The notes under the pieces were generated by a model. The model saw nothing but the letters and a program-made list of their open reading frames with translations. It did not search any database and was not told the origin of the DNA. From a virus (Duplodnaviria > Caudoviricetes), in the IMG/VR virus record IMGVR_UViG_3300021399_000009, positions 44,607 through 108,606 of that record: a stretch of 64,000 nt of DNA; one strand, written 5' to 3'. Positions 48,841-64,000 of the stretch are shown here, piece after piece; positions within the stretch are counted from its first letter, which is position 1, and the number at the start of each line of letters is the position of its first letter. The position numbers and the translations under genes are program-made.

Positions 48841-51681
48841 TTACTTTCTATATTCTGATTGTTTTAAAGTCTTGAATTGTCTACGATATTTCTTATAACA
48901 ACAATCGCAAAGTTCACGCTTGGATTTTGAACCAACACTAAATTCAGCTCCACAGTTTACACATATTCTTGTAGGTGTATATTTCACAGGAATGTATTTC
49001 TCTCTCATATCATTTCTATTGGTAATAAGAGTATATCTTTCCTGACATTCCTTACATCTGCAAGTATTAGTTCCTTTACGAACTATTATTTCTTCACCAC
49101 AATCAATGCAATAGCTTATATCTATTTCACTATCAAAATCTTTCATTAAGTGCTGATACATTGTATTGCCAAACATCTCCCAGAACATTTTCTTTTTACC
49201 AGTTGGATTTCGATTAAATATTTCTTCAACAATGTTATCGACTATATCATGCCAATTGGTTATGCCTATCTCTTTACAACGAGAATAGATTTTATTCCTT
49301 GCACCATTAATCACGAATCGGTAATCTTTTACAACTTCGTCCTGTTTCTTGTCAAAACGTGAAGAATTGATAACGTCCTTGTAAATACCAACCACCTTTG
49401 AATTGAATCTGCTATCAGTCATAGGACTGCTAAGAAATTTTGTATAATCAAACTGTGTTTCAAAGTCATATTTGCCGTATTGTATTCTTGGTATCTTAAT
49501 AACTTTAGCAATATTATTTGCAGGAGTGTCTGTTAATGTATCTGTCTTTTCTTCTTCATAGTTCTTTGCGTACTCAAAGAAACGTGGTACTTTAACATTG
49601 AGATACTTGCTTATAATATAATTGATATTGTCTGGTCGAGTTGGCATATACATTGTCTTAAAATAGTCAATTTGAAAATTGTTCTCTCCTACAAGAAGTT
49701 TTATTACTTTTACCTGTTCATCAGTTAAACTCCAATCGTTGTTTCTTCCTATGTTCCAAATCTTAGTAATTGCATTGCTATAATAGCCTATGCTTTTACT
49801 ATTGAAAGCCATTTCCATACATCTGAAAAGTGAATCGTTATTAACTGGTGTACTATCAGCTTTTTTCATTTCATAATACAAGGGACATATATTTAGTTTT
49901 TTAATGACTTTCTTTGCAGCTTTAATTATTATATCATTGTTACACACAAACAGATGGTCGCCATCCCAATCGAGTGCCATTATGCGTGACATAAAATCGT
50001 GAGAGTTCGTATAGATAGCATTGGTAGTAAACCACTCCTGTATATTATTTGTTTCTATGCAATGCTCACAATAAAGATGCGGACTACGCAAACAATCAAG
50101 GTCGATGCCGTTATCAAATAACCTACAGCTTACTTCGCCAGCTTTTAATAAACCGTTGGGGTTTTCAATTCCCATAATCAGATGTTCACAGAAAGCATAT
50201 AGGTCTGGAACAGCAAACGTATAGTTTCCTTCTACCAAAAACTTTGCTGAATATAAATCCCTTACCAGACTTTCTTTTTTTGATTTAAGCTGCTCTTTTA
50301 TGTATTTGTCTTGCAACATCTCAGGATATTCATAAAGGCATTTTTGAAAAGGCGATTTGTTTTTATTGCTTTCTACTGCACCAAAGATTTCAAGTATATG
50401 TTCTTTGTCAACTTTTTTATTCTTGGTAGATACGCCAAGGTTTAATATTTCATCAAGATTTGGCTGAGACAGATTTAAGATTTCATCATCGGTTAAACAA
50501 CGCAAGGTTTGAATCATTTGATAGTTTATGTTTCTCACGTTGTCAAATTCTTCATCTTCTTCATTACCGATACACGCTTCACAATTATATTTTTTAAAGC
50601 GTTCTTTGTAGTCATTCCAATCTTTGTAATACTTCCACATCTTAAATTGGGATTTTGTAAATATGACTTGTATATCTTCCTCGATGATATTATGTTTCAC
50701 ACCATAAATATCCTTGACCACAGGAGAACAATCATTGACCTCAATAAATTTTCTAAAGTCAAATACTCCCAACAGTCCTTTAAACCACGGCAGTCTGATA
50801 ACAAAATCCTTTGAGCTAATACTCGGTAACATCATTCCGCATCCATCGTTCTGCTCCATTGGTAGTGTTCTAACTCCGTGTGTTATCTCATAAGTGTCGT
50901 AGTCTATATAATCTACCTCACCAGTTACCTCGTTCTGAAAATCATCTACGACAATAGACTTATCAATATCAAAACCTTTCCAAGTTTTAGACATAGAGCT
51001 ACACAAAGAAACATAAGCAAGATACTTAGCTGTATTACAACCACCGCAATCATTAATCTCCTTGATGCTTAATCCAGCCATAATCTTATTCCAATGTTTC
51101 TCTTTTAAATCTTTGCGTATAGCTACAAATTTTTTGTCCTTGGTTTGTCCTGCTGATGCTGTAAAAAATTCATATTCATATCCATCGTACATAAATCCAT
51201 TCTTAATCAAAGATTCCATAATACCAGTATAATAAACACGAATAATACAAATCTCAGGATTAAACTTATTTTTATTAAGACCAAGAGTTCTTGTTAACGC
51301 ACTATCGCTTATAGTGACCTTCTTGCCACTACTAATGCCATAACCATTTCTTTTTGCTATTTTTTCATATATCAATGTTCGCTTGGTATCTTTATTAGCA
51401 ACAATGGCATCTCTGAATTGATTCTTCAACTCGCTAAGAGTTTTTTTAATTTCTTGTATGCGAGGTTTATTTTCTTCTTCCCAATCTGAAATTTCATCAC
51501 TGTTTATCTGAGTTTTTATTCCATTAACCTTTTTATATTTCTTTTTTGGACATTCCTTTTCAAGAAGATACTTTTCAAGCTGTAAGCTTTCAATCTTATT
51601 CCATAATTCTTTTTCGCCATTATCTTCAAGAACAAAGTCTTGTGTATCAACTCCAAGCACATAATACAGTTTGCTATTCAA
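48841..51681 (-). CDS. yonO: YonO-like single-subunit DNA-dependent RNA polymerase with C-terminal Zn ribbons
   Basis: TASAGQ, DGCGMMLP, IRLPWFKG, IFTKSQFKMWKYY, RSPH, catalytic DWDGD; TTG start after GGGAGG; upstream of the late genes. Confidence 0.9.
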   Translation of the reverse strand: MNSKLYYVLGVDTQDFVLEDNGEKELWNKIESLQLEKYLLEKECPKKKYKKVNGIKTQINSDEISDWEEENKPRIQEIKKTLSELKNQFRDAIVANKDTKRTLIYEKIAKRNGYGISSGKKVTISDSALTRTLGLNKNKFNPEICIIRVYYTGIMESLIKNGFMYDGYEYEFFTASAGQTKDKKFVAIRKDLKEKHWNKIMAGLSIKEINDCGGCNTAKYLAYVSLCSSMSKTWKGFDIDKSIVVDDFQNEVTGEVDYIDYDTYEITHGVRTLPMEQNDGCGMMLPSISSKDFVIRLPWFKGLLGVFDFRKFIEVNDCSPVVKDIYGVKHNIIEEDIQVIFTKSQFKMWKYYKDWNDYKERFKKYNCEACIGNEEDEEFDNVRNINYQMIQTLRCLTDDEILNLSQPNLDEILNLGVSTKNKKVDKEHILEIFGAVESNKNKSPFQKCLYEYPEMLQDKYIKEQLKSKKESLVRDLYSAKFLVEGNYTFAVPDLYAFCEHLIMGIENPNGLLKAGEVSCRLFDNGIDLDCLRSPHLYCEHCIETNNIQEWFTTNAIYTNSHDFMSRIMALDWDGDHLFVCNNDIIIKAAKKVIKKLNICPLYYEMKKADSTPVNNDSLFRCMEMAFNSKSIGYYSNAITKIWNIGRNNDWSLTDEQVKVIKLLVGENNFQIDYFKTMYMPTRPDNINYIISKYLNVKVPRFFEYAKNYEEEKTDTLTDTPANNIAKVIKIPRIQYGKYDFETQFDYTKFLSSPMTDSRFNSKVVGIYKDVINSSRFDKKQDEVVKDYRFVINGARNKIYSRCKEIGITNWHDIVDNIVEEIFNRNPTGKKKMFWEMFGNTMYQHLMKDFDSEIDISYCIDCGEEIIVRKGTNTCRCKECQERYTLITNRNDMREKYIPVKYTPTRICVNCGAEFSVGSKSKRELCDCCYKKYRRQFKTLKQSEYRK

Positions 51682-51885
51682 TTTATTTAATTCCTCCCAT
51701 ATCACAAAATCATAGTGAATATTAATGTGAAATCCACATTATACCTAATAAACCAAGTGATAATGATATTGACATTACAAGTGCTAACGTAGCAAGATAA
51801 GATAAAACAAGGTCGTGTTCTTTTAATGCAAATTTTAATGCTTTGAATATTACTCCTTGAAACCCTGTTATTATTCCCCAAATTA

Positions 51886-52074
51886 TTAGCATCCGCATAC
51901 CATTGTTCCTCTATCCTTAAATACTTCTTTTCTTTCAATCCATCTGTCTGCCATAGTATCGCTGATAGGTGATAAGTCATAATCCTCACAGCCATAATAT
52001 TCCGCAAGTTCTTTTAAGGCAGAACCATTAGGAGTACCCATTGCAAGTATTTCAAGCATTTTGTGTATTGTCAT
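51886..52074 (-). CDS. Hypothetical protein
   Basis: AAGGAAGTG RBS. Confidence 0.55.
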   Translation of the reverse strand: MTIHKMLEILAMGTPNGSALKELAEYYGCEDYDLSPISDTMADRWIERKEVFKDRGTMVCGC

Positions 52075-52194
52075 TTTTCTTCACTTCCTTTTTTATTTCT
52101 TCAAGAGTTAATGTCCTACAGTCCTTATCGGTTCGTACAACTGATAGAGGACAGCTCAGACAATGTATCTGTTGGCTACATATCTGTTCTCGTG

Positions 52195-52434
52195 TCATTT
52201 ATGTAATCTCCTTTCATAGAAAGCATAGGCATCGTGCATACACTGTGTAGTCAATTCCCATTTGTCATCTATCCAAACATGATATACAGGTGTAGTCCAA
52301 TTATAACAAGGTACGCCATTGCCTATTCTTGTCTTGGTCATATACAACCCCGTTGTATCGTTGCTGCTTTCGAGCTGATATAAACATCGAGTTTTATTGT
52401 CGAAAGTAGAAGCCCATCTGCTTAGATTTGTCAT
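52195..52434 (-). CDS. Hypothetical protein
   Basis: GAGGAG RBS. Confidence 0.65.
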   Translation of the reverse strand: MTNLSRWASTFDNKTRCLYQLESSNDTTGLYMTKTRIGNGVPCYNWTTPVYHVWIDDKWELTTQCMHDAYAFYERRLHK

Positions 52435-52474
52435 TTCTATCTCTCCTCAGCTATATGATTTATACATTGATAGA

Positions 52475-52606
52475 TTAGCACCAATCATCTACATACTGCT
52501 TGTAGTCCGGATGACCATAGAACTCGTCTGAGCTTTCTTGATTGTCTATGACAGTAGAATCTGTATAATCTGTAGTCTGGATGTAGTTTATGTAATCCTT
52601 AGTCAT
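52475..52606 (-). CDS. Small acidic peptide (43 aa)
   Basis: GGAGGTG RBS overlapping the upstream gene end. Confidence 0.45.
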   Translation of the reverse strand: MTKDYINYIQTTDYTDSTVIDNQESSDEFYGHPDYKQYVDDWC

Positions 52607-53552
52607 TATCGTTCACCTCCTTAATAAGAAATATATCTTCGATTCCGGTTGCCTGTGCTATCTTTTCCTTATTAGCATATATACTATACAGTGCAGGATT
52701 AACACACAGGTATTCTTTGATAACATCGTTCTTGGCTGCTCTGACTGCGACCAACACCCCTCGGTTATCTCCGTTCTTATCTGGGTACTGAATCTTTAAT
52801 AACTGATTGACAAATCGCTTCGAGTGAGAGATATTCAATCCAAGTTTAGCACATAGCGTATCAACCGACATCTTTGTAATTTTTGCTTTATCAGTTTCCC
52901 AAGGGTTTTCGCAAAGCACATTATAGGTCAAATTAACATAAGGGAGTATCATATACATATAAGCTAACGTTTTATGAGAATCAATCGTGGCGTGTTCATA
53001 CAAGAAACGAGTTGAGTATATAAACAACTTGGCTGCTCTTTGGTCTTTGGCTTTCTGTAATTTACCTTTGCCAAATATATTAGAGTTAATTTGAAATCCT
53101 TGTTCATCTTCTATAAGGTAATTGTATCTCTTGGCTTCTCTAAGGAATGACTTAAAAGAAGTGTCTCCAAGTTTTAATAACGATTGCAATTGTCCCCTTG
53201 ATAGAAGTTGTCCATTGTCATAAGCTATGTAATTGTCCTTATTGACGTAGGTTGCCAAATAAACCAATCTGCTTATAGTTGGGTTGTTCAGATTATCAAA
53301 CGAACGCTCGGATGGTATAAAGTAATGCCACACATAACTCCCTCCTTCACTTATACTATTGTCATAATCGCTCTCGTCTTGTTGCTTAATGGCATAATGT
53401 TTTCGTCCATAGTTCTTGCGGCTGTTGTATTCTTCTTCCGAAAAACAAGTAACAACGCTATTCTCAGGAGGTTCTTTAACTTCGCCTTTGTCATTAATAA
53501 TCGCTTTGACACGTTCCATTGCATCATTCCTTTCAATTTTGGTTTTCGCCAT
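52599..53552 (-). CDS. Tandem winged-helix DNA-binding protein, probable replication initiator (RepL-like)
   Basis: Two wHTH-like halves ending QINSNIF and LCVNPALY; direct repeats over its start; next to the large non-coding region. Confidence 0.6.
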   Translation of the reverse strand: MAKTKIERNDAMERVKAIINDKGEVKEPPENSVVTCFSEEEYNSRKNYGRKHYAIKQQDESDYDNSISEGGSYVWHYFIPSERSFDNLNNPTISRLVYLATYVNKDNYIAYDNGQLLSRGQLQSLLKLGDTSFKSFLREAKRYNYLIEDEQGFQINSNIFGKGKLQKAKDQRAAKLFIYSTRFLYEHATIDSHKTLAYMYMILPYVNLTYNVLCENPWETDKAKITKMSVDTLCAKLGLNISHSKRFVNQLLKIQYPDKNGDNRGVLVAVRAAKNDVIKEYLCVNPALYSIYANKEKIAQATGIEDIFLIKEVNDND

Positions 53553-53594
53553 TTTGCGACCTTTTTGGGGGTGTTTTTCGCCATTTTGCGACCT
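53543..53594. repeat. 20-bp direct repeat (iteron-like) over the initiator start codon
   Basis: TTTTCGCCATTTTGCGACCT at 53543-53562 and 53575-53594. Confidence 0.85.
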
Positions 53595-53707
53595 CACCCA
53601 ATTTGCAGTTTTTCCCGAAAAATCGGGCTAAACTGGCGTTTTTTGAAAAATCCGTTCTTTTAGATTTAGTAAACCCCATACGCTTGCCAAGGGTACAGAC
53701 ACTTGAA

Positions 53708-53742
53708 CTATATGATTTATTCAATCTATATGATTTATACAA
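53708..53742 (-). promoter_or_regulatory. Tandem operator-like motifs
   Basis: TTGTATAAATCATATAG and TTGAATAAATCATATAG, 18-bp period. Confidence 0.75.
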
Positions 53743-53781
53743 TGAACAAATATAAAAATAGCTCACCTGTGTACTAATCCT

Positions 53782-53810
53782 ATTATATCATAATATTTAT
53801 ACTTTGTCAA
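53782..53810 (-). promoter_or_regulatory. Sigma-A promoter of the leftward rep-RNAP operon
   Basis: TTGACA-17-TATAAT, TG extended -10. Confidence 0.88.
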
Positions 53811-53834
53811 GAGAAAAAATAAAAAAATAAAAAT

Positions 53835-53992
53835 TCCCCCTCTGGGGGACGAACGAGCGTAGCGAGTGAGATAGGGGGATATATTATAGAGTTATAGAAT
53901 TATAATTTAATATTTACTATTTAATATTTACTATATTGGGGACAGGGACGGTAAACTTCGCTACGCTCAGTTGACCTTTGCCCTTTCCCCAA
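53835..53992. other. Stem-loops carrying inverted GAGCGTAGCGA motifs (primosome/ssi-like)
   Basis: GAGCGTAGCGA 53855-53865 and TCGCTACGCTC 53958-53968, the latter in the loop of a G/C-rich stem. Confidence 0.55.
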
Positions 53993-55102
53993 ACCCCTTT
54001 TCCTAATTTAATTATCTTATATATCTGTTATTAGAGTGTATATTATTTTTCTGATTTATTAGCGTATTATTGGGATTTATTAAGGATTTGAAAATTTGGT
54101 ATGATTATTTATGCGATATTTTAATAATTAGTTTATGGCTATATATAGAGAAGTGAATGATAATTAATATGGGAAGATGTGGGGATAATGGAGTGGAATG
54201 AGTTAGCGTGAACTGGTGTGAATGGAGTAGAACACCTTACCCAGTATTCCGGCAGCGAAATTTGATTTAAAATGTAAACATACCCCGTATATAATTTTTA
54301 CAAAGTGCCGTATTTGCCTATTTACCGCCGTTTAATTTCCGTTTTGTTCATTTTAAGTAATTAAGATATTTAATAAAAAGAACGACTGTTCTATTTGATG
54401 GTAATCATTTAAGTGAAAAATTAATTAAACATTGGTTATTTAAGCACTTAATTTAAGAGCTTAAACGCAGCTTAATTAAGTTATTATGTGATTAAACAAT
54501 TGAGATTAATTTATCTGATAGTTTAATTAAATTTATACTTAAAAGATTAACTCCCTTTAATTATTTTGTTGCAATTGCAACACATAACAATAATAAACAT
54601 GAATATTCATATACAAAACGCTCAATAAATCCCTATAAATAGCCAAAAATCAATATACATATAACAAATATTCATAAAAATGCAAAAATATTCACTATTA
54701 ATTAAATAATAAAACATAAAAAACTGCTCAAAATCAGACTTGAAAAAAACGCTCAAAAAATGTTTATTTTTTCCCTATATATAGCCATTTATGGCACTTC
54801 AAAAAAAGTCAAAAAATAGCCGTTTTTCTCAGCTCAGACAGCCAATTGTTGAAAACTCATTAAAAACTGCACAAAAATATTTACTTCTCATTGTATAATA
54901 TGCACAACACGTCTCTTTTATATTATAATAGTATACTACTCATACTATGACGAACAGTATAAAACAAATATAATATTACAAACTGTATTCACACAAACAC
55001 TTTAATACACTAAAATCTTATTGCTTATTGCACAATTATTCAATTTAACACACTAAAGTTTTTTGTGCAACCATCCAAAACTAAAAAACTTTTCAAAAAT
55101 CG

Positions 55103-55131
55103 TTGACAAAGTAAAAATCATGTAGTATAAT
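55103..55131 (+). promoter_or_regulatory. Sigma-A early promoter with operator motif in the spacer
   Basis: TTGACA-AAGTAAAAATCATGTAG-TATAAT; A-tract UP region. Confidence 0.9.
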
Positions 55132-55139
55132 AGCATTGT

Positions 55140-55685
55140 AAACAAAACACGGAGCAACAAAAAGCTCCAACGTCCCGACTTGATACGGGACGCTAAAAGA
55201 ATTCAGTTAACGCCGCAAATTTTGTGGTATTACGGTATATCATAGGGGCGTACACCGTTAGTTATAATGCAAGTGTACGGGGCGTGTGCCAACGTGCCTA
55301 ATAACATGGCAGGCAGCTATTGCCAAAGTATAGCAGCCGAAAATAAACAATTTTCCGCTATAAGCGACTTGAAAAAGTTTCAACGCTTATACCGTGGAGC
55401 AGTCCACGCAAAATAAACAGTGCCGTAACAGTGCAATATCTCTTCTGTATAATCTGTACAGCGTGACAAAGTTGATGTTGTCAATAGGTACTATGTTCTT
55501 ACTGTACAATAACACTAATTTTGTGCGGTATTACCTTAAAACATAGGCGGTGAAATAAAATAGCTAATACCGAAAAATAGCTGAATAAAGGGACTTTTTG
55601 AAAAATTTTTAGGTAGTCCCGACTCTGTAAAGAGGCGTTAAGGCGTGAGCCGTATTGCGGTAAAAAATTTGTACGGACTACTAAT
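55140..55685 (+). ncRNA. Candidate large structured ncRNA / leader
   Basis: No ORF of 60 codons or more in the track; more than 12 helices including long-range ones; G-U wobbles and GNRA loops on the + strand. Confidence 0.7.
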
Positions 55686-55705
55686 TACAATAATTCTATG
55701 CTATA

Positions 55706-55734
55706 ATTATACTCAAATTATAGCATTTTGTCAA
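55706..55734 (-). promoter_or_regulatory. Antisense sigma-A promoter embedded in a hairpin
   Basis: TTGACA-17-TATAAT on the minus strand. Confidence 0.6.
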
Positions 55735-55833
55735 GCGGTATTGGAGTTAATTCTAATACCGCTATATATGTACAATTTAGCGTAAATCCGCTGAAAAGTA
55801 CAACCATAATTCTAATTTTAGGAGGTCATTATT

Positions 55834-56142
55834 ATGACAAAATTTATACTTTTTTTAGGACTGTTCGATAAAGACAGCAAAGCACAAGAGATAAGCACTC
55901 TCAATGCGTTCAAAATAGCCTCAAATCTGGTTACTGATATTGTAGGCTATGGCACTATAACTGAGGCTATGGGTATCTATACTCATGATGATGGTACTAT
56001 CGTTAATGAGCCTACACTCCGTATTGAAATAACTGGAAGTGAACTCGAAAAAATCAAGAGGCTTGCTATAGTCTTAAAACAGGCATTTAATCAAGAATCA
56101 GTCGCTCTTGAAAAGGTCAATTCAGACTTTAATTTTGTATAA
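55834..56142 (+). CDS. SAM lyase-like (T3 SAMase/DUF3574-like) protein
   Basis: G.Y....G....E.T.R.......RLA.......QESV resembles T3 SAMase GCY...EEKTVRV...RLA....EQDCV; first early gene. Confidence 0.65.
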   Translation: MTKFILFLGLFDKDSKAQEISTLNAFKIASNLVTDIVGYGTITEAMGIYTHDDGTIVNEPTLRIEITGSELEKIKRLAIVLKQAFNQESVALEKVNSDFNFV

Positions 56143-56157
56143 TCACAAAGTACAAAT

Positions 56158-56244
56158 CATATAGCTAATAATGCAGAGTAGGGGTGTATTATACGCCCTT
56201 AATGCAGCCAGTCAGACGGTTACAAGCCCGTGACTAACTGTATA
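56158..56244 (+). ncRNA. Twister ribozyme, P5-type permutation
   Basis: AAUGCAGAG-[P1 hairpin AGGG.../CCCU]-UAAUGCAGC...ACGGUUACAAGCCCGU; predicted cleavage 56200/56201. Confidence 0.88.
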
Positions 56245-56269
56245 AATCTAATTTTAGGAGGCTAATATT

Positions 56270-56530
56270 ATGTTAGTAAATGGCAATATTGTTGAACTGC
56301 GTCCAACAGATTCTCATAAAAGTTTTTACGGTAAAGCCCGTGTTGTTATGGCTGAAAATGGGGATAAAACTCTAATCAGCTATACAACTCCCGTTCTCCG
56401 TCTTACTTCTGACGGTAAACTGGAAAAGTTGTGGGATGGATATTCTGCCACAACTATGAGACATATAAATTCATTTTGTGACACTTTCGGTATCAACGGA
56501 GGCGGTAAAAGGTGGTGGGAAACTTTATGA
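56270..56530 (+). CDS. Conserved-looking early phage protein
   Basis: AGGAGG RBS; KSFYGKA...SY.T.V...W.GYS.TT.RHI. Confidence 0.8.
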   Translation: MLVNGNIVELRPTDSHKSFYGKARVVMAENGDKTLISYTTPVLRLTSDGKLEKLWDGYSATTMRHINSFCDTFGINGGGKRWWETL

Positions 56531-56814
56531 CACACAAATACTCTTTGCGGTATTGGATAGGTGAAACGTGGTTCAATCTAAGGGAAAATTTACCTTTCTT
56601 TGCACTCTTTTTACCACCATACCATTACAACGTCAAGGAAAATGTAAGCTGTTTAAGTTGGAATTTTGCAAATAATGTGCAATACTATTCAAGACCGCCT
56701 ACATTTTCAAAAAAGCATAACGCTGATGGAGGCTTGTGGAATTTTCTGCAAGCCTTAAAGCTACTCTGTCATATCCAAAGTAGACAGGTGCTTAATATCT
56801 TTTTGGGAGGCTAA
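56527..56814 (+). CDS. Hypothetical protein
   Basis: ATGA overlap. Confidence 0.55.
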   Translation: MTHKYSLRYWIGETWFNLRENLPFFALFLPPYHYNVKENVSCLSWNFANNVQYYSRPPTFSKKHNADGGLWNFLQALKLLCHIQSRQVLNIFLGG

Positions 56815-56818
56815 TACT

Positions 56819-57178
56819 ATGACTAAAACTGGATATTTAAGAGGCTTTAAACGTCTTACAACTGAGGAAATTTCTGAGGAAAAAGAACGCCTTAGAGCTG
56901 CTGGAATTAGACTTGATGTTGAAACTGGAAAACTCTACAACTCTAAAAATATCCCTTTGGGAATAGTTAGCGGAGTTACAACACCTACTGGAAAACAGTA
57001 CAAGATAGGCTCTCAGAATGGAAATTCTGACGTATGGTACAATGACAGATTTCTTGGTGATAACTATGCCGTATTTGTGAAAGTGGAAAAGTGCGGATTT
57101 TGGCAGCAGATAACACCATGGTATTGTCGTATTGGAAATGCTGTAAAACGTATGACAAAAATTTCACAGGAGGGCTGA
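56819..57178 (+). CDS. Hypothetical protein
   Basis: GGGAGG RBS. Confidence 0.75.
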   Translation: MTKTGYLRGFKRLTTEEISEEKERLRAAGIRLDVETGKLYNSKNIPLGIVSGVTTPTGKQYKIGSQNGNSDVWYNDRFLGDNYAVFVKVEKCGFWQQITPWYCRIGNAVKRMTKISQEG

Positions 57179-57181
57179 ACT

Positions 57182-57394
57182 ATGAAAATAACAATCGGAA
57201 ATTTTCTCGATAAAGGTTTGGAAAATGGTACTATCAAGCCTAATCAGATAGTAGCATACTATGACCATAACAATAACTTAAAATGGCTTGGAAAAGCTGA
57301 ATTTGCACCTATTTTCTTGGATTGGGCTGCACTCGACCACTATGAATATGTGGAAAATGAACTGAGAATATGGGAGGAAAAACGTCCATGTTAA
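57182..57394 (+). CDS. Hypothetical protein
   Basis: AGGAGG RBS. Confidence 0.75.
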   Translation: MKITIGNFLDKGLENGTIKPNQIVAYYDHNNNLKWLGKAEFAPIFLDWAALDHYEYVENELRIWEEKRPC

Positions 57395-57582
57395 TCAAAG
57401 ACCTAAAAATAGGGGAATATTTTACCCTTAAACCGATAGAAAATCCAACGGAAAAACAAGTCTTTATCCGTGGAGAATATGACCGCACTGAAAAGAAATT
57501 TGAGTGCGGTCGTTTTGATGATATAAGCTATACACGTTATCTCAGCGGAAAAACTGAGGTATACACTGACTTTACATTCTGA
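57388..57582 (+). CDS. Hypothetical protein (SH3-like small beta protein)
   Basis: GGGAGG RBS; IKDLKIGEYFTL. Confidence 0.75.
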   Translation: MLIKDLKIGEYFTLKPIENPTEKQVFIRGEYDRTEKKFECGRFDDISYTRYLSGKTEVYTDFTF

Positions 57583-57595
57583 GGAGGATATAACT

Positions 57596-57727
57596 ATGGG
57601 AAAAATCTACACTGTTAAATGCGTTGACTATGGCTGGACTGTCAAAATTCGTACACGGAAAAACTATGCCATTGGTGACTTATGTATCGTCAATGGCTGT
57701 ATCTGTTCAATCATTAAGGAGGGATAA
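57596..57727 (+). CDS. Small protein (43 aa)
   Basis: GAGGAGG RBS; absent from the ORF track. Confidence 0.6.
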   Translation: MGKIYTVKCVDYGWTVKIRTRKNYAIGDLCIVNGCICSIIKEG

Positions 57728-57730
57728 ACT

Positions 57731-57964
57731 ATGCCAACTAAAAAGGAAATTTGCACAAATAATAAGTCCATAGCTTATTGGAGTGGCTGCAACGGACTGG
57801 AAATTAAGCACATAGAGTACGGCATAGATGATTATGTGTACTTTGTCGCTGGAGCTTGGAACGGAAAACCCACATACCATAAGGCTAAAGTTCATTACGG
57901 AGAACGTGCGTATTTTAGATACCACGGATATACCGTCTATCTCGATGAATGTATCAGAATGTGA
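57731..57964 (+). CDS. Hypothetical protein
   Basis: AAGGAGG RBS. Confidence 0.75.
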   Translation: MPTKKEICTNNKSIAYWSGCNGLEIKHIEYGIDDYVYFVAGAWNGKPTYHKAKVHYGERAYFRYHGYTVYLDECIRM

Positions 57965-57974
57965 GGAAAAAGCT

Positions 57975-58226
57975 ATGTATAGAAATTTTCATATATTCAA
58001 CACTGGAAATTCCTTTGTGGTCAAAGCTGATAGCAAGCGTTTTGGAAAACAGGCTATTGTTTATGAGGACTATGACCTTAAAAAATGCGTATCGTGGATA
58101 TATTCACATTACCGTAATAATAATGGAAAAATTATAACAAACAGAAGGTGGACTGACCGTATATATGCAATTGCTATGTCAACCTGTAATTGTGCGGATA
58201 ATCCTTGGTTTAAGGGAGGAAAATAA
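57975..58226 (+). CDS. Hypothetical protein
   Basis: GAGG RBS; VKADSKRFG. Confidence 0.7.
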   Translation: MYRNFHIFNTGNSFVVKADSKRFGKQAIVYEDYDLKKCVSWIYSHYRNNNGKIITNRRWTDRIYAIAMSTCNCADNPWFKGGK

Positions 58227-58228
58227 CT

Positions 58229-58438
58229 ATGAATAAACGTCAGAAGAAAATGAAATGGAACAAAATTCACTGGAATAGATATATGCGTTTTTGTGATTTG
58301 GCTATGCGTGTATCCGTACAGGCTGATATTATACAGCGTATGAGTAATTCCTCCGAAAATGATAAAATAAGAATATATCTTAATGAAATCAAAAAAGAAA
58401 TGGAAAATATACGATATGATATGACAGGAGGAAAATAA
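58229..58438 (+). CDS. Hypothetical protein
   Basis: GGGAGG RBS. Confidence 0.7.
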   Translation: MNKRQKKMKWNKIHWNRYMRFCDLAMRVSVQADIIQRMSNSSENDKIRIYLNEIKKEMENIRYDMTGGK

Positions 58439-58439
58439 T

Positions 58440-58811
58440 ATGTTACACATTAATTCAAAACCAATCACGGAAAAAGCTCAGATAGGCTGTCTGAACTATA
58501 GCTCTATCTTTTCGGAACTTATTCACGCTGCAATTGTATGTGAATACTATGCAAGCGATGTATTCATAGACTTAAAGCGGATAGAGTGTGCTATCACGGG
58601 TGCGGAAAATAAAGTGTTCTATCTCGGTTATCGTGATAATGGTGTTGATGGAAAAACTTTTGTCAAGTCACGACTTTCGGAAAATAGATACTATGAATAT
58701 ATCCGTTTGTACAGACTGGAAATATCTTCTGACGGAGAATATATTACAGTGGAACTCAAACGTATATCAAGCTATGATGCACATAAGGAACTTTGCGAGG
58801 AGGAAAAGTAA
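58440..58811 (+). CDS. Hypothetical protein
   Basis: AGGAGG RBS; YASDV.ID...G.RDNGVD. Confidence 0.75.
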   Translation: MLHINSKPITEKAQIGCLNYSSIFSELIHAAIVCEYYASDVFIDLKRIECAITGAENKVFYLGYRDNGVDGKTFVKSRLSENRYYEYIRLYRLEISSDGEYITVELKRISSYDAHKELCEEEK

Positions 58812-59360
58812 ATGAAAAATATTATATTCTCAAACTATTATGACAGTGACAGGGAAAAAGCAACAAGAGAGTTCTTGCTGGAAGATAGAGGCGAGGACAA
58901 CGGCTGGGAAACTATTGACGATATTCCAGACAGTGAAGTGTGGGATGAAATGTCATTCAATGAACAGATGGACTGGGAAAGTGTTACAAGCGAACTGGAA
59001 AACTTCTTTGAGGGTAAGGAAATTCTTGTCATCGGAACTGTAGGCAGATGGAATGGCACATACTCTGCTGGAAAAGTTATATCATATAACGAACTTCATA
59101 AGTGCTGGTCTGACTGCGACTATGTGGAAATCTATGACGAGGACGGTCATATGCACATCAATGCAAGTCACCATGACGGAAATAATCACTTTGAAGTCAA
59201 GATTCTTACGGGAAAAGGCAGAAACTACTATTCACGTTGGAATGAGAATTGGAGTGATTCACGGTCAGAACAGGAAATTCACACAAAACTTGTGGAAAGT
59301 TCACGCTATACCCACATACCACACTTTGCAAGGAAAGTTTACGGCTGTAAAACACGATAG
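58812..59360 (+). CDS. Acidic hypothetical protein
   Basis: GAGGAGG RBS; GRWNG, HHDG motifs. Confidence 0.8.
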   Translation: MKNIIFSNYYDSDREKATREFLLEDRGEDNGWETIDDIPDSEVWDEMSFNEQMDWESVTSELENFFEGKEILVIGTVGRWNGTYSAGKVISYNELHKCWSDCDYVEIYDEDGHMHINASHHDGNNHFEVKILTGKGRNYYSRWNENWSDSRSEQEIHTKLVESSRYTHIPHFARKVYGCKTR

Positions 59361-59433
59361 GAAAAAGTATAATGGGCACTTGCAAGTCCCATTACCATAT
59401 ACGATAAGGAAATTTTTAAAGGAGGAAATTACT

Positions 59434-59850
59434 ATGGTAAACAAATTAAGTAAAATATTCCCTAATGGCTGTACATCAAGACAGAGGGATAATCTTATCG
59501 AGGAAATATGCAGTCAGTACGGAAATGTAGGCAATTGGAAAAAATGGTCTGATTCTGCTAAACAACTTTATGAGGAAATGAGTGCATTAAATATGCTTGA
59601 AAGTTGCTTTGCGTATGGTGGAATATCTACATTCTATGACCAGCATAAAGCTTGGGAATATTGTGGAGAGGGCAGTCATTATGACCATTACTTAGCGGAC
59701 TATATTGAAGTCGGTGGAAATAAGAAAGAATTTGATAAAATGATAGAAATTCAGACTAAATATCTCACGGAAAAATGTGAAGTAGTATACGCTGGAACTG
59801 ATGGCGAGGGACTTTCGTACAATGGAATAAGGGAGGTATCAGCAATATGA
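59434..59850 (+). CDS. Hypothetical protein
   Basis: AAGGAGG RBS; TDGEGLSYN. Confidence 0.75.
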   Translation: MVNKLSKIFPNGCTSRQRDNLIEEICSQYGNVGNWKKWSDSAKQLYEEMSALNMLESCFAYGGISTFYDQHKAWEYCGEGSHYDHYLADYIEVGGNKKEFDKMIEIQTKYLTEKCEVVYAGTDGEGLSYNGIREVSAI

Positions 59851-60032
59851 GAATAACAGTATATTTTAGCAATGGAGCTATTAAGGAATATTCTGATGTT
59901 AAAGATACTCGGAAAGTTTGGAGGGATGTATCAAAACTCTGTAAGGCTTATGGAAAATTTAGAAGTCACTTCATAAACATTTGCGGAACGGAATGGAAAG
60001 TAAGAGTAATAAAGGTTGTCAAGGAGGATTGA
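59847..60032 (+). CDS. Hypothetical protein
   Basis: GGGAGG RBS, ATGA overlap. Confidence 0.7.
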   Translation: MRITVYFSNGAIKEYSDVKDTRKVWRDVSKLCKAYGKFRSHFINICGTEWKVRVIKVVKED

Positions 60033-60035
60033 GCT

Positions 60036-60200
60036 ATGACGGTATTGGAAATATTAAAAAAGCGTAGAGAAATCTACACAAAGGAACTGGAAAATAAGTA
60101 TATTGGACAAAAACGAAAAGCTGATACTGAAAGTAGATTATCAGAAGTGGAAAACTTAATATTCATTATCACTACAAACAATATTGATATAGTCAAGTAA
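60036..60200 (+). CDS. Small protein (54 aa)
   Basis: AAGGAGG RBS; absent from the ORF track. Confidence 0.6.
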   Translation: MTVLEILKKRREIYTKELENKYIGQKRKADTESRLSEVENLIFIITTNNIDIVK

Positions 60201-60213
60201 GGAGGAAATTATT

Positions 60214-60903
60214 ATGTTAAAAGGAATGATTAAGGAATACACAGAGCTTATGACTTCTCTCAATGAGAGTAAGGAAAAAGCCGATGCCATGAATAAGAAA
60301 ATGTTTAAGACGGACATCAAAGACAGGCTTGCCGATAAAGACGGTTGGAAAAAGCAGCTTGATGAATACGCTCATATGGAGAATACAATAAAGCATAAAC
60401 AGGAATATCTGTACATTCTCCAATACAATATGTTCAATGCTTTTATAGTTGAGAATATGGAAACGATAAGGGAAATTATAAACAAGTACGCTAATAAGCC
60501 TATCGGGGAAAAGCGTAGAGGAAATTTGTATGATGAAATTCACGCCCTTATTCCGAAAGAAGTTATGTATATTTTCAGCATAAGCATTAACTACGGAACT
60601 TTCGGAGGAATAGAAATATACCTCAACTACAAGAATAACCGCCATTGGGTATGGATAATTGATAGCAGAGAGGGTAACACATATTCAGAACTGACAGAGG
60701 AAAAAGTCTCTGACATAATCAATAACGCAAAGGGAAAAATCGTCAATGATATTGACAAATACATTGCTGATACCTATGAAAAAATAGCTGTCCTCAATGG
60801 GAAAATAGAGGAAGTTGAAAAGCTGTATTCAGAAGTTAGGGATGCAGCCGATGAAATGAATATATGGTCATATGACACGACTGTAAAGAAGTATAGAATA
60901 TAA
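60214..60903 (+). CDS. Coiled-coil hypothetical protein
   Basis: AAGGAGG RBS. Confidence 0.8.
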   Translation: MLKGMIKEYTELMTSLNESKEKADAMNKKMFKTDIKDRLADKDGWKKQLDEYAHMENTIKHKQEYLYILQYNMFNAFIVENMETIREIINKYANKPIGEKRRGNLYDEIHALIPKEVMYIFSISINYGTFGGIEIYLNYKNNRHWVWIIDSREGNTYSELTEEKVSDIINNAKGKIVNDIDKYIADTYEKIAVLNGKIEEVEKLYSEVRDAADEMNIWSYDTTVKKYRI

Positions 60904-60958
60904 AGCTATTGGAAAAAAGTAACAAATAAATATTACATTATTTGTACAATGTAACCTA

Positions 60959-60987
60959 TTGACAAAGTACAAATAGTGTAGTATAAT
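60959..60987 (+). promoter_or_regulatory. Sigma-A promoter with operator motif in the spacer
   Basis: TTGACA-AAGTACAAATAGTGTAG-TATAAT; second degenerate copy at 60998-61014. Confidence 0.9.
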
Positions 60988-61031
60988 ACAATTACCGAAG
61001 AACAAATCGTAAAGTGATTAAGGAGGAAAAC

Positions 61032-61355
61032 ATGGCAAAGGAAAAATACTTTTACAAAAAATACTTTTACATTGTTGAATATCAGGGCGGTGCTGAATAT
61101 GAACCTGCGGAGGGCGGATATTATGTACCGGTGACGGAAGTTTCCGCAGTATCTACAAAGCGTTATAAGGAAAAACACGCAAGGCGAGAATTAAAAAAGG
61201 CTATTAAAGAAGCATCCGAATATTATGGCGAACCTACTTATGTGGGAAGATATAATGCCGTATGGTCTACCGGAAAATATGTAGGCGATACATTTGAAAT
61301 TCGCATGACTGGCTGTCCTGCGTTACATGAACAGCACTATTATGGATATTGTTAA
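61032..61355 (+). CDS. Hypothetical protein (YEPAEGGYY motif)
   Basis: AAGGAGG RBS. Confidence 0.8.
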   Translation: MAKEKYFYKKYFYIVEYQGGAEYEPAEGGYYVPVTEVSAVSTKRYKEKHARRELKKAIKEASEYYGEPTYVGRYNAVWSTGKYVGDTFEIRMTGCPALHEQHYYGYC

Positions 61356-61371
61356 TTAAGGAGGAAATGTT

Positions 61372-62268
61372 ATGAATACACCATTATCAAATCTGTTAAA
61401 GGAAAATAGCAAAGCGTTACAGGGACTTCACGCTATTGCTGATATGGACTTTCAGAAGCCATTTACCATAATAGAGTGTACTGGAAACTTTACATACAAC
61501 TCTATTCTTAATGTGTTCGGAAAACCTGACCTTGATGAAGTCAATATATTTGTAATGTACAAGTCATCTAAGAGCTGGGATGCAAACTATAATTATCTCG
61601 TTCACCTTATCAAGGGAGGAAAATTTGAGAGTCAGAGAGGGGAAATTGAAGGCTATGAGTCAGTTAGTGGCTGGCGTTGGTTCGATACTGCAATAGGTAA
61701 AGGAACTTTTGAGAAAATAAGAAAAGACAAGAATTGCCACTACTGGATAATTGCACAGGAACGGAAATATGCTGTACAGTCTGAGCTTAAAGTTGTGGAT
61801 TATTCCGTAAGATACAGAACAAAAATAGACTATGGAAATTATTATGCGATACCGTATCACAAAAATGGTGATTGGTATTATGACAATGTATGTGATTCAT
61901 TATCAAAGTATAACTTTGATAAATCAGGCTATACGTCACTCGTCAATAATTATGATAACAGAGTACGGAAACTTAAAGCAGAACGCTCCGCTGCCGAGGC
62001 TGCAAAGTTTGACAATACGGAAAAGCTTAGAGAGTTCACTGAGCGTATTAATCATTGCAACGAGGCATTGCAGATTATTCTCGCAGGAAATTATTTGGAT
62101 ATTGACTATGAGAAAATCTCAGATGCCATACGTTGTCTGCGATTTGGAAAACATTTTTATAAACAACTTAAAGCAAACAACTTTACTTCCATGAGAGATA
62201 TTAATTATACTTTGGAAAGATTGGAAGATGAAGTTGGAAGTGCTGAAAAGCATTTGAAGGGAGAGTAA
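61372..62268 (+). CDS. Hypothetical protein
   Basis: AAGGAGG RBS; DKSGY motif. Confidence 0.8.
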   Translation: MNTPLSNLLKENSKALQGLHAIADMDFQKPFTIIECTGNFTYNSILNVFGKPDLDEVNIFVMYKSSKSWDANYNYLVHLIKGGKFESQRGEIEGYESVSGWRWFDTAIGKGTFEKIRKDKNCHYWIIAQERKYAVQSELKVVDYSVRYRTKIDYGNYYAIPYHKNGDWYYDNVCDSLSKYNFDKSGYTSLVNNYDNRVRKLKAERSAAEAAKFDNTEKLREFTERINHCNEALQIILAGNYLDIDYEKISDAIRCLRFGKHFYKQLKANNFTSMRDINYTLERLEDEVGSAEKHLKGE

Positions 62269-62269
62269 A

Positions 62270-62527
62270 ATGAAAAATAAAAAAATGGAAAATATAATTA
62301 ATAAACTGCTTGATTCCGCATTGAATGATGCGGAGTCTGCTCTCAAAAATAAAAAGGGACTTAATAATGACCTTGTATGCAAAAACTATTATCACTCTAT
62401 GGGGGTATATCATGGAATTTGTTCGGTCTTGGAAAAGATTTCAATAGACAAGTATATAAAACGCTTTGAAAATGACAGACTCCGTATGTATGATATACTC
62501 CAAAAAGCTGATACTCTAAACTTATAA
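62270..62527 (+). CDS. Hypothetical protein
   Basis: GGGAG RBS. Confidence 0.7.
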   Translation: MKNKKMENIINKLLDSALNDAESALKNKKGLNNDLVCKNYYHSMGVYHGICSVLEKISIDKYIKRFENDRLRMYDILQKADTLNL

Positions 62528-62553
62528 ATAAAGAAAAAAACAGGAGACAACAA

Positions 62554-62745
62554 ATGAAGCACTATCGCTTAAAGGAAAATATTAAACAGGGAATATTCCT
62601 GATAGCATTAGGTTGCATCTGTCATAAGGTAGGAGCGGACGGAGCAGCAATTATAATGTGGTTTCTGGGAACAATAATATTCCTTGGAAAAAAAGAGGAG
62701 GAAGTCAATGACTCAGAAGCAGAGAGAAAATTGTCTCAAAGTTAA
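62554..62745 (+). CDS. Small two-TM membrane protein
   Basis: AGGAG RBS; two hydrophobic segments. Confidence 0.65.
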   Translation: MKHYRLKENIKQGIFLIALGCICHKVGADGAAIIMWFLGTIIFLGKKEEEVNDSEAERKLSQS

Positions 62746-62950
62746 ATCTGCTTTGATTGACATTTTCGACAACGGAAGATTAACAAAGTATCTTCCTACA
62801 AGTTATCTCGCATTTGAATTGGCGAGAACATACAATCATATAATTAAAAATGAACCTGTGGAAACTATCAATAAAGAGCTTAAAGACTTCTACGAAAAGA
62901 ATGGGTTCACAATCAAAAACAAAGGTATAGGCTGGACAATCAGCTTATAA
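62708..62950 (+). CDS. Hypothetical protein
   Basis: GAGGAGG RBS. Confidence 0.65.
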   Translation: MTQKQRENCLKVKSALIDIFDNGRLTKYLPTSYLAFELARTYNHIIKNEPVETINKELKDFYEKNGFTIKNKGIGWTISL

Positions 62951-62980
62951 TAAATATTGAATTTTTAGGAGGAAAATATT

Positions 62981-63991
62981 ATGACAAAGGCAAACATTTC
63001 TTGGAACATTAATCAGATAGTAAAGGGTATGAACAATGGAACTATCCGCTTTGACAATGCTATTCAGAGAGGGTATGTGTGGGACAAAAAGAGAGCATCA
63101 CTTCTTATTGATAGCGTACTCAGGGAATATCCTGTACCGCCTATTTTCACAATCAAGACAGAGGAAAAAATCAAGGTTAAGAGTAAGGAAGTTTCTGTCT
63201 ATGACTGCATAGACGGAAAGCAGAGGTCAACTACATTCAAGTTGTTTATGGAAAATGCTTTTAAACTGGAAGGACTTGAACCAATTATTCAGTCAGACGG
63301 TTCGGAAATTGATATAAATGGACTGACCTTTGAAGAACTTGACGAGGAAATGCAGGATGCTATTAAATCATATACGTTGACAGTTTATTACTTCTCAGAC
63401 ATTACCGATGATGAAGTTGCGGAAATGATGTCAAGACTGAATAATGGTAAGGTACTGACTGGAACGGAAAATGCACGTATCAAAGCAAAGCAGCTTGACA
63501 CTATTAAGGAACTTGCAAGTCATAATCTGCTGACAAACTACCTTACGGAAAAAGCCATTAAGGGATATGTCAATGAGGACATCGTAATCAAGTTCGCACT
63601 TCTTCTTAGCGAACAGACGGAACTTTCAAATAAGAATGTTCGTGAAGCATATGAAACTTATAGTTTTGGAGAAACCATTTGTAAGAGTATCAATGATACT
63701 ATGGACTTTGTTCTTGAAGCTATCGAGGATAGCACTGATGACAGGAAGATTATCAAGCGTATGACTTCAAAGGCAAATCTGATAACTATTCTGTATGTGG
63801 CTCACGAATATCTTATCAATGGAAATTCTGATGTGAGTGAGTTCGCTGATAGACTGGCTGAGTTCTTCAATGGAACTGAGGGAGCTACTATTTCGGAAGA
63901 TTATAACGATGCTTGCACCAATGGAACAATGCGTAGTGCAAATGTACTTACAAGGAATGACGAGTTCTACAAGTATGTAATAGGAGAATAA
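62981..63991 (+). CDS. Stand-alone DUF262 (ParB-like, GmrSD N-terminal type) protein
   Basis: QRGYVW, LIDSVL..YPVP, IDGKQR, RLNNG..LT. Confidence 0.88.
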   Translation: MTKANISWNINQIVKGMNNGTIRFDNAIQRGYVWDKKRASLLIDSVLREYPVPPIFTIKTEEKIKVKSKEVSVYDCIDGKQRSTTFKLFMENAFKLEGLEPIIQSDGSEIDINGLTFEELDEEMQDAIKSYTLTVYYFSDITDDEVAEMMSRLNNGKVLTGTENARIKAKQLDTIKELASHNLLTNYLTEKAIKGYVNEDIVIKFALLLSEQTELSNKNVREAYETYSFGETICKSINDTMDFVLEAIEDSTDDRKIIKRMTSKANLITILYVAHEYLINGNSDVSEFADRLAEFFNGTEGATISEDYNDACTNGTMRSANVLTRNDEFYKYVIGE

Positions 63992-64000
63992 TATAACATT

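Follow-up and report, generated by a model that had tools for sequence, protein, structure and literature searches.

What a long, elaborately folded, noncoding stretch of about 550 nt does at the head of the first early transcript of a gut phage is the question raised by this locus. The window, that is, the whole stretch of 64 kb analysed here, forms the right part of a 108.6-kb virus record with a G+C content of 35% and a 127-bp terminal repeat at its end. The phage genome encodes a 954-aa homologue of YonO, the RNA polymerase of SPbeta, with 38% identity to SPbeta-group phages, as well as a large serine recombinase, and the phage was therefore regarded as temperate and SPbeta-like. Near-identical phage DNA was found in gut metagenomes, and small shares of the phage's words occurred in sheep, goat and bovine gut runs, while a 20-mer of the leader and the protein of the first gene revealed no relatives of the phage in 185,579 species genomes. 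The leader is located where two gene arms diverge, alongside 1.3 kb of AT-rich noncoding DNA. Its left neighbour, a 332-aa protein (52599-53597), gave no match in Pfam or PDB, its only relatives being phiCD211-like hypothetical proteins. Outside the window, at 4448-4738 of the genome, a frame of 338 aa that weakly matches tyrosine recombinases adjoins another pair of perfect promoters lying face to face (genome 4146 on the + strand and 4236 on the - strand); this frame may encode an MrpR/YopR-like repressor.

The features of the locus are collected in Table 1. Transcription from the early promoter P(+) is expected to start at about 55139, some 7 nt past the promoter, whose sequence is identical in the relatives L043 and L042. 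The word in its -35 and spacer region, TTGACAAAGTAnAAAT..GTATAAT, is present at seven promoters in the genome, several of them with a second copy 40-60 nt downstream, and looks like the putative operator set of a master repressor; we take it to be comparable to the repeated element of SPbeta. At the other end of the leader, P(-) points back towards P(+). From a predicted start at about 55698 it would read over the whole leader, so that, judged from the sequence, the transcripts of the two face-to-face promoters overlap, a layout that recurs in five of the other cassette types described below. The 5' hairpins of the leader, when read on the - strand, resemble terminators abutting P(+), albeit weak ones, either with a stem of only 5 bp or with a U tract that is interrupted. 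The convergent promoter, which the initial annotation had not weighed, is the part of the locus architecture that is conserved best.

Table 1. Features of the leader locus and of related cassettes (window coordinates unless a genome or contig is named).
Feature	Position	Strand	Remarks
Promoters sharing the operator-like word	window 945, 53810 (-), 55103, 60959; genome 6795, 23100, 38082		word as in P(+)
Early promoter P(+), TTGACA-17-TATAAT	55103-55131	+	12/12 consensus; operator word in -35/spacer
Untranslated leader of the early operon	55139-55833	+	no conserved ORF, no ribosome-binding site, z -5.0; structured body 55140-55685
Two 5'-terminal hairpins, GGAGC/GCTCC and CGTCCCG/CGGGACG	55151-55192	+	terminator-like on the - strand, just before P(+)
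Large multi-branch domain	55201-55586	+	closed by ATTCAGTTA/TAGCTGAAT
Replaceable internal module	55208-55338	+	unrelated 167 nt in L042, L044 and X3
Stretch covered by RNA contigs	55471-55660	unreadable from contigs	sole RNA cover in 54000-57500
Domain H, two-helix hairpin	55491-55546	+	CTATGTT/AACATAG and TACTGTACAA/TTGTGCGGTA, 11-nt loop UAACACUAAUU
Nearly invariant 3' domain	55548-55681	+	hairpins 55590-55620, CUCU-GUAA-AGAG 55623-55634, GCGU-UAAG-GCGU 55635-55646 and 55645-55681
11-bp A/U-rich palindrome followed by UUUUGU	55698-55731	+	-9.4 kcal/mol; contains the -10 of P(-)
Convergent promoter P(-), TTGACA-17-TATAAT	55706-55734	-	12/12 consensus; operator word absent
12-bp hairpin 3' of the palindrome	55734-55763	+	-17.5 kcal/mol
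First early gene, 102 aa	55834-56142	+	S-AdoMet lyase match below threshold (22.2 bits, cut-off 28; E 1.5e-4)
Twister-P5 self-cleaving ribozyme	56172-56231	+	45.8 bits (gathering score 37.6)
Ribbon-helix-helix-like genes	L008:3002-3199, L026:510-707, L036:1323-1535	-	cassette types B, C and D

The stretch between these promoters carries no sign of translation. None of the leader ORFs of at least 30 aa is preceded by a ribosome-binding site, and outside the invariant stretch L043 or L042 interrupts every frame. A type I toxin-antitoxin of the bsrG/SR4 kind known from SPbeta, or another small peptide, was considered and rejected, as no conserved hydrophobic ORF with a ribosome-binding site was found. 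The part of the initial annotation that is supported is a noncoding RNA structured on the + strand, and this RNA lies at the start of a transcript from an operator-bearing early promoter.

All of the stem arms named in that annotation, which had given 3' arms by their end coordinate, were recovered from the sequence: GGAGC at 55151 with GCTCC at 55164, CGTCCCG at 55171 with CGGGACG at 55186, ATTCAGTTA at 55201 with TAGCTGAAT at 55578-55586, CGTACAC/GTGTACG, TATAAGCG/CGCTTATA, CGTGGA/TCCACG, and GTAGTCC at 55613 with GGACTAC at 55675-55681. The helix of TTACGGTAT (55230-38) and GTGCCGTAA (55420-28) encloses six or seven hairpins within the multi-branch domain. The word AAAATAAACA does occur twice, at 55340 and 55410, and the mutually exclusive pairings TTAACGCC/GGCGTTAA and GGGACT/AGTCCC are likewise present. 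One proposed stem fared less well: both arms of CGGTATTA/TAATACCG exist, but their pairing is not supported, since it suffers a C-A mismatch in L043 and competes with the helix of TACTGTACAA (55500-55509) and TTGTGCGGTA (55521-55530), whose pairing is maintained by compensatory changes. The consensus fold comprises 188 pairs in 25 helices, and 19 of these pairs are wobbles that read as G-U on the + strand, as had been noted.

Folding of the 551-nt + strand was better than that of dinucleotide shuffles, with -163.6 kcal/mol against -130.5 +/- 6.6 (z -5.0; 0 of 100 shuffles as good), while the - strand of the same 551 nt reached a z of -3.3. The G+C content is 0.41-0.47 in 55120-55440, compared with 0.21-0.30 in the noncoding DNA to the left. 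Local z values, calculated for stretches of 160 nt, are only moderate (-1 to -4.6) and are equalled by some downstream coding stretches, so that the thermodynamic signal by itself is not decisive and the case rests on covariation.

For this purpose the cassette of the window, here called type A, was compared with three diverged relatives showing 99%, 93% and about 85% identity, in alignments of three to five sequences. The full-length relative L043 (93%) and the group of L042, L044 and L037 (about 85%) were found via contigs encoding the neighbouring small proteins. Covariation was present in the form of four compensatory double changes, all in domain H. In L043, 13 transitions in this domain turned G-C into A-U twice, U-A into C-G twice and A-U into G-U once, L042 added two further wobble changes, and no pair was broken. 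When 13 transitions were placed at random in a simulation, at least four double changes without a break arose in about 2 of 10,000 trials (P about 2e-4). Domain H, whose helices had been predicted from the window sequence alone, is the best-supported structure of the leader. A possible extra compensatory pair, 55288/55310, is ambiguous in its register.

Other parts of the leader change little or change in ways that fit the + strand. The stretch 55548-55700 is nearly invariant amid 7-15% divergence elsewhere; across all variants, the 3' domain shows two changes, an unpaired U-to-C at 55614 and a GUAA-to-GAAA exchange in the tetraloop 55627-55630, which remains a GNRA loop on the + strand only. 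A C-to-U change in the 5' hairpins of L042 yields U-G on the + strand and A-C on the - strand, and hairpin 55734-55763 tolerates U-G to U-A and G-U to A-U changes on the + strand only. The inner closing helix 55230/55420 retained its pairing through four one-sided changes in L043, with one break, and in L042, where the alignment was read by eye and the interior is replaced, 7 of 9 pairs were kept, four of them G-U. None of the long-range helices showed a double change among the three to five sequences. For the structure as a whole, 7 of 500 shuffles reached the observed score, a weak statistic at this number of sequences.

Counting substitutions by strand extended this picture to two further cassette types, B and C, which are described below. 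Projected onto a fold predicted from the window only, L043 kept 13 changed pairs (five of them double) and broke five on the + strand, compared with 12 kept and 10 broken on the - strand; for type A by itself this asymmetry is not significant (P = 0.33). The corresponding kept and broken counts were 13 and 5 (+) against 6 and 13 (-) in type C, and 9 and 3 (+) against 4 and 7 (-) in type B, giving pooled values for the three types of 35 and 13 (+) against 22 and 30 (-) (Fisher P = 0.0025). The covariation support is real though thin, with essentially two diverged sequences behind it, and the compensatory, G-U-specific and GNRA-to-GNRA changes are signatures of selection on the + strand RNA. The + strand RNA is a chain of hairpins maintained by selection, and the cassette spans the distance from the + start to the - start.

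Searches for a known family gave a uniform picture. In agreement with the initial annotation, an Rfam cmscan of the whole window at the gathering score placed no family in the leader, with ROOL, GOLLD, raiA, riboswitches and introns all unmatched. Neither were ROOL, GOLLD, OLE, raiA or HEARO among the matches for 54700-56400 at E up to 10, and models of riboswitches, T-boxes, known leaders, antiterminators and self-cleaving ribozymes found nothing in 55140-55833 at the same limit. Only chance-level Rfam matches were obtained in the leader (RsaF with 20.3 of 60 bits, tmRNA with 12.1 of 47 bits), and the sole genuine match nearby was the downstream twister-P5 ribozyme. The leader had no blastn match in 50,697 phage records, and nhmmer detected nothing of the leader region in the YonO-linked loci L010-L019. 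An exact 17-mer search of IMG/VR viral contigs returned the 99% twin and four chance matches inside an unrelated gene, and an exact 20-mer search of JGI metagenome contigs returned nothing. Covariance model R1, built on 55470-55702, found only itself in 22 sources and had no counterpart in other cassettes. Within the databases searched, leader homologues are limited to a few closely related phage contigs, and the literature yielded no account of this leader RNA or of such cassettes. The leader RNA belongs to no catalogued family and is a candidate for a new one.

These results bear on two suggestions of the initial annotation. A protein sponge of the CsrA-like or AUAACA type did not hold, as no repeated motif was found: GGA occurs about five times by eye count where roughly eight are expected, and ATAACA is not enriched. 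The other suggestion, a large RNA in the size class of ROOL and GOLLD, would in its full form be a giant ornate RNA folded into one integrated tertiary structure, and has its appeal in a length of about 550 nt, an origin in a rumen or gut phage, many hairpins, long-range helices, GNRA loops and a z of -5. Like ROOL and GOLLD RNAs (PMC12191101), which fall into the same size class as OLE, the leader combines many helices with a lack of coding capacity and an association with rumen or phage. Those RNAs, in contrast, are broadly distributed and free-standing near tRNAs, whereas this one is narrow in distribution, modular, a 5' leader between convergent promoters and without a covariance-model match, be it to ROOL, GOLLD, OLE, raiA or HEARO. 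Covariation supports local helices only. In addition, the 130 nt at 55208-55338 are swapped for an unrelated 167 nt in the L042 group with the flanks retained, the same swap being present in run X3; this replacement module had no match among the sequences compared in this analysis. The narrow distribution in a few close phages, the exchangeable internal module and the exchangeable whole unit, with differing RNAs in the slot, argue against a giant integrated RNA, which we regard as highly improbable.

Three metatranscriptome runs from two studies and one DNA run were mapped over 54000-57500. Each RNA run contributed one short contig: 55471-55646 (X7), 55495-55660 (X9) and 55493-55646 (X10). Part of the sense/antisense overlap region thus accumulates as RNA, the contigs being strandless. 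They carry A at 55547, where the window has G and the 99% twin L007 also has A. Two of the contigs stop at 55646, the last base of hairpin 55635-55646, and two start at 55493 and 55495, at the foot of domain H; as depth was low (2.7-4), these ends could reflect coverage, and at this depth the lack of RNA cover over 55139-55470 and 55661-55833 is uninformative on expression. The contigs are a hint, not a proof, of a stable RNA species.

Such a species would be at the centre of the main rival explanation, a trans-acting RNA from 55491-55646. Either a processed noncoding RNA of about 155-190 nt (roughly 55491-55646) or the whole leader with gene 1, freed by the twister ribozyme, would act on a target in the host or in a phage. 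Such an RNA might serve as a decoy against defence systems, or it might confer immunity after being cut from a leader, as P4 CI RNA, P1 c4 RNA and N15 CA RNA are. Confinement of the RNA-library cover to 55471-55660, with contig ends at hairpin edges, would suit such an RNA, as would the near invariance of 55548-55700 and the better folding of the core (55488-55648) on the + strand (-37.7 kcal/mol, z -2.25) than on the - strand (-26.8 kcal/mol, z -1.07). It would be expressed first in the early operon, beside a possible SAM lyase, and a hypervariable slot would suit an arms race. The same contigs, however, have a depth at which their ends may mirror coverage, no repeated binding motif was seen, and the RNA is found only in few close relatives, with a covariance model that lacks a counterpart in other cassettes. 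On balance, a trans-acting RNA as the function of the leader seems unlikely to us.

Downstream of the leader, the first early gene possibly encodes a SAM lyase, to judge from its sub-threshold match. A SAM riboswitch ahead of this SAM-lyase-like gene was considered and rejected for want of an Rfam match. A Twister-P5 ribozyme, located 3' of the first gene or genes in 12 of 14 relatives scanned, lies here between the first and second early genes, and its cleavage would separate the leader and gene 1 from the remaining operon. Several further elements were noted in this neighbourhood. An operator-like word, ACAAAGTACAAATCATATAG, is situated just 5' of the twister at about 56146-56165. The element AGCGTAAATYCGCT, which can form a 4-bp hairpin, is found at 55786-55800, just upstream of the ribosome-binding site of the first gene, and is kept across most cassette types, 75-82% relatives included; it stands at the same place in L008, L027 and L031, but is diverged in L028. 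In L042 and L043 (2501-2614 in both contigs), an additional lysine-rich ORF of 37 aa, preceded by a ribosome-binding site, lies between the leader and the first gene. The word GGAAA occurs 106 times on the + strand of 56422-64000, about once per 73 nt, starting 190 nt past the twister and running to the end of the window; it is absent from 50000-56421, hence from the leader and gene 1, and TTTCC is almost absent in 56422-64000. As a word, GGAAA tags the early operon in a strand-specific manner.

The palindrome 55698-55731 is a candidate weak terminator or attenuator on the + strand, which fails the G-C criterion of the terminator scan. It opens the way to an explanation in cis, in which the leader would regulate elongation, either by put-like or EAR-like antitermination or by a factor-responsive switching of this hairpin. 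The leader heads a long operon of many short genes, the -9.4 kcal/mol hairpin with its UUUUGU lies just 5' of gene 1, and two 7-nt segments (55328-55336 and 55356-55364) can pair with either arm of the hairpin. Mutually exclusive pairings and a clear + strand terminator inside the type C leader point in the same direction. Against this stand the searches at E up to 10, in which no family of riboswitches, T-boxes, leaders or antiterminators matched, the loss of the palindrome in type B, and the unrelated cassettes in the slot, which argue against one shared polymerase-binding fold. A riboregulator of elongation is accordingly rated as distinctly unlikely.

What occupies the same slot elsewhere changes the reading of the leader. 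Contigs with an identical 102-aa first gene, or with one that is 75-82% identical, carry different noncoding stretches of 400-800 nt, so that the same first-gene protein is found in phages with other cassettes. Seven cassette types were distinguished (A to F including D'), at least five of which are unrelated to type A, and the other types gave no Rfam family match either. Homology between types A and B resumes at 55704, inside the palindrome and essentially at the start point of P(-); type B does not keep the palindrome 55698-55731. The cassettes of types A, B, C, D, D' and E, six of the seven, are closed by a TTGACA-17-TATAAT promoter on the - strand, with 12/12 consensus positions in five and 11/12 in one, and as their spacers differ, these terminal promoters are not one inherited sequence. 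Phages that are otherwise near-identical thus fill the slot with unrelated cassettes that share one architecture, and the cassettes are analogous, without detectable homology.

The types also differ in what accompanies the leader. In types B, C and D, a - strand gene of 65-72 aa lies left of P(+) and diverges from it; its product is ribbon-helix-helix-like at a Pfam E value of only 0.09. In L008, tandem CATTGTACAAAATG repeats lie between this gene and the early promoter. Type C has, besides the + strand terminator mentioned above, a - strand unit of roughly 200 nt across the leader. Type A has no ribbon-helix-helix-like gene and no repressor gene downstream of P(-).

The stretch could also matter mainly as DNA, being a recombination hot spot, part of a replication origin or a pair of convergent promoters that act by interference, with RNA folding as an incidental property. 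That it lies where the gene arms diverge and next to 1.3 kb of AT-rich noncoding DNA would agree with this, as would cassette boundaries lying in promoter-like words and coding stretches that fold equally well. The compensatory, G-U-specific and GNRA-to-GNRA changes argue in the opposite direction, and RNA contigs exist; a role mainly at the DNA level is consequently considered very unlikely.

The feature that is most conserved is the architecture, in which the early promoter is operator-controlled, the leader is long and folded, and the convergent promoter is constitutive; we therefore favour a sense/antisense control cassette. With a probability of roughly 0.5, the leader is a structured RNA that acts in cis together with an antisense RNA of its own, similar to prgQ/prgX of pCF10, and works as a switch or immunity cassette; the step from promoter layout to actual regulation is one that we infer. 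In a lysogen, a repressor bound to the repeated operator would shut P(+), while the operator-free P(-) would keep firing. Early transcripts with the same cassette, whether leaky or incoming, would then be silenced through collisions between polymerases and through antisense pairing, possibly assisted by the weak terminator-like hairpin 55698-55731. Upon infection or induction, strong firing of P(+) would override the silencing. Since sense and antisense RNA derive from the same DNA, a cassette swap or mutation would create a new specificity, and swapping of this kind would account for the hypervariability of the slot in a manner reminiscent of heteroimmunity. A further probable effect of the 5' hairpins is to make the early mRNA more stable.

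Several observations count against the control cassette. The putative - strand terminators are weak, type A lacks a repressor gene downstream of P(-), unlike prgX and types B to D, and a purely antisense mechanism has no need for selection on the + strand fold, yet the wobble changes keep the + fold and not the - fold. The near invariance of 55548-55700, together with the elaborate folding, might reflect a further role that the RNA has in its own right. A broader proposal, put forward tentatively, is that unrelated structured RNAs of 400-800 nt at the head of the early operon of SPbeta-like rumen phages, each with a constitutive antisense promoter, are interchangeable RNA-only specificity determinants, for heteroimmunity or as anti-defence decoys, with type A freeing a stable core of about 155 nt (55491-55646) that acts in trans.

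Among known systems, the closest parallel is found in plasmid pCF10 of Enterococcus faecalis, where two opposing operons, prgQ and prgX, each use an RNA (Anti-Q, Qs) against the other (PMC3181467). Both are opposing units in a mobile element of Firmicutes, in both a structured leader RNA heads the induced operon, and in both the opposing unit gives an RNA complementary to this leader, in the phage a predicted one; types B, C and D have, like prgX, a small repressor-like gene past the opposing promoter. The present leader differs in belonging to a phage, in containing no peptide and in having, in type A, an antisense unit without a repressor gene. Its overlap is about 560 nt, that of pCF10 about 220 nt. 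Moreover, whole cassettes are swapped among the relatives of this phage, and the regulation proposed for them is predicted from sequence.

The plasmids of the Inc18 and pT181 groups (for instance pIP501 with CopR, RNAII and RNAIII) employ countertranscript-driven attenuation, with antisense RNAs of 85-140 nt that end in a clear terminator. The locus resembles them in its long leader, the convergent antisense promoter inside it, the candidate terminator-like hairpin past the overlap and a specificity that would be given by shared sequence. It differs in that type A has no clear - strand terminator near the RNA-supported region, and the hairpin that might serve it as attenuator is weak and is not kept in type B. 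Temperate phages of several kinds use antisense RNAs, or RNAs derived from leaders, to control the first early or the antirepressor transcript, and heteroimmune relatives differ in these RNAs. Examples are immI of P22, with the ribbon-helix-helix repressors Mnt and Arc and sar RNA, c4 of P1 and P7, the CI RNA of P4, and PRE/OOP of lambda, in which the RNAs are 70-100 nt and the leaders short. The ribbon-helix-helix-like genes of types B to D are divergent from the early promoter just as mnt is. No similarity of sequence or model links these modules to the cassettes described here.

If the sense/antisense reading is true, the cassettes would provide naturally occurring orthogonal sense/antisense switches. 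With its promoter, leader, convergent promoter, possible SAM lyase and twister ribozyme, the locus is compact and suits ordinary reporters. RNA-based immunity, which is represented by a few small coliphage RNAs and by Gram-positive plasmids, would be extended to much larger and more diverse RNAs. In many uncultured SPbeta-like phages of the gut and rumen, the control of lysis-lysogeny and superinfection would then run partly via folded leader RNAs and their antisense partners, and genomes that are identical in other respects would trade these control RNAs as complete cassettes.
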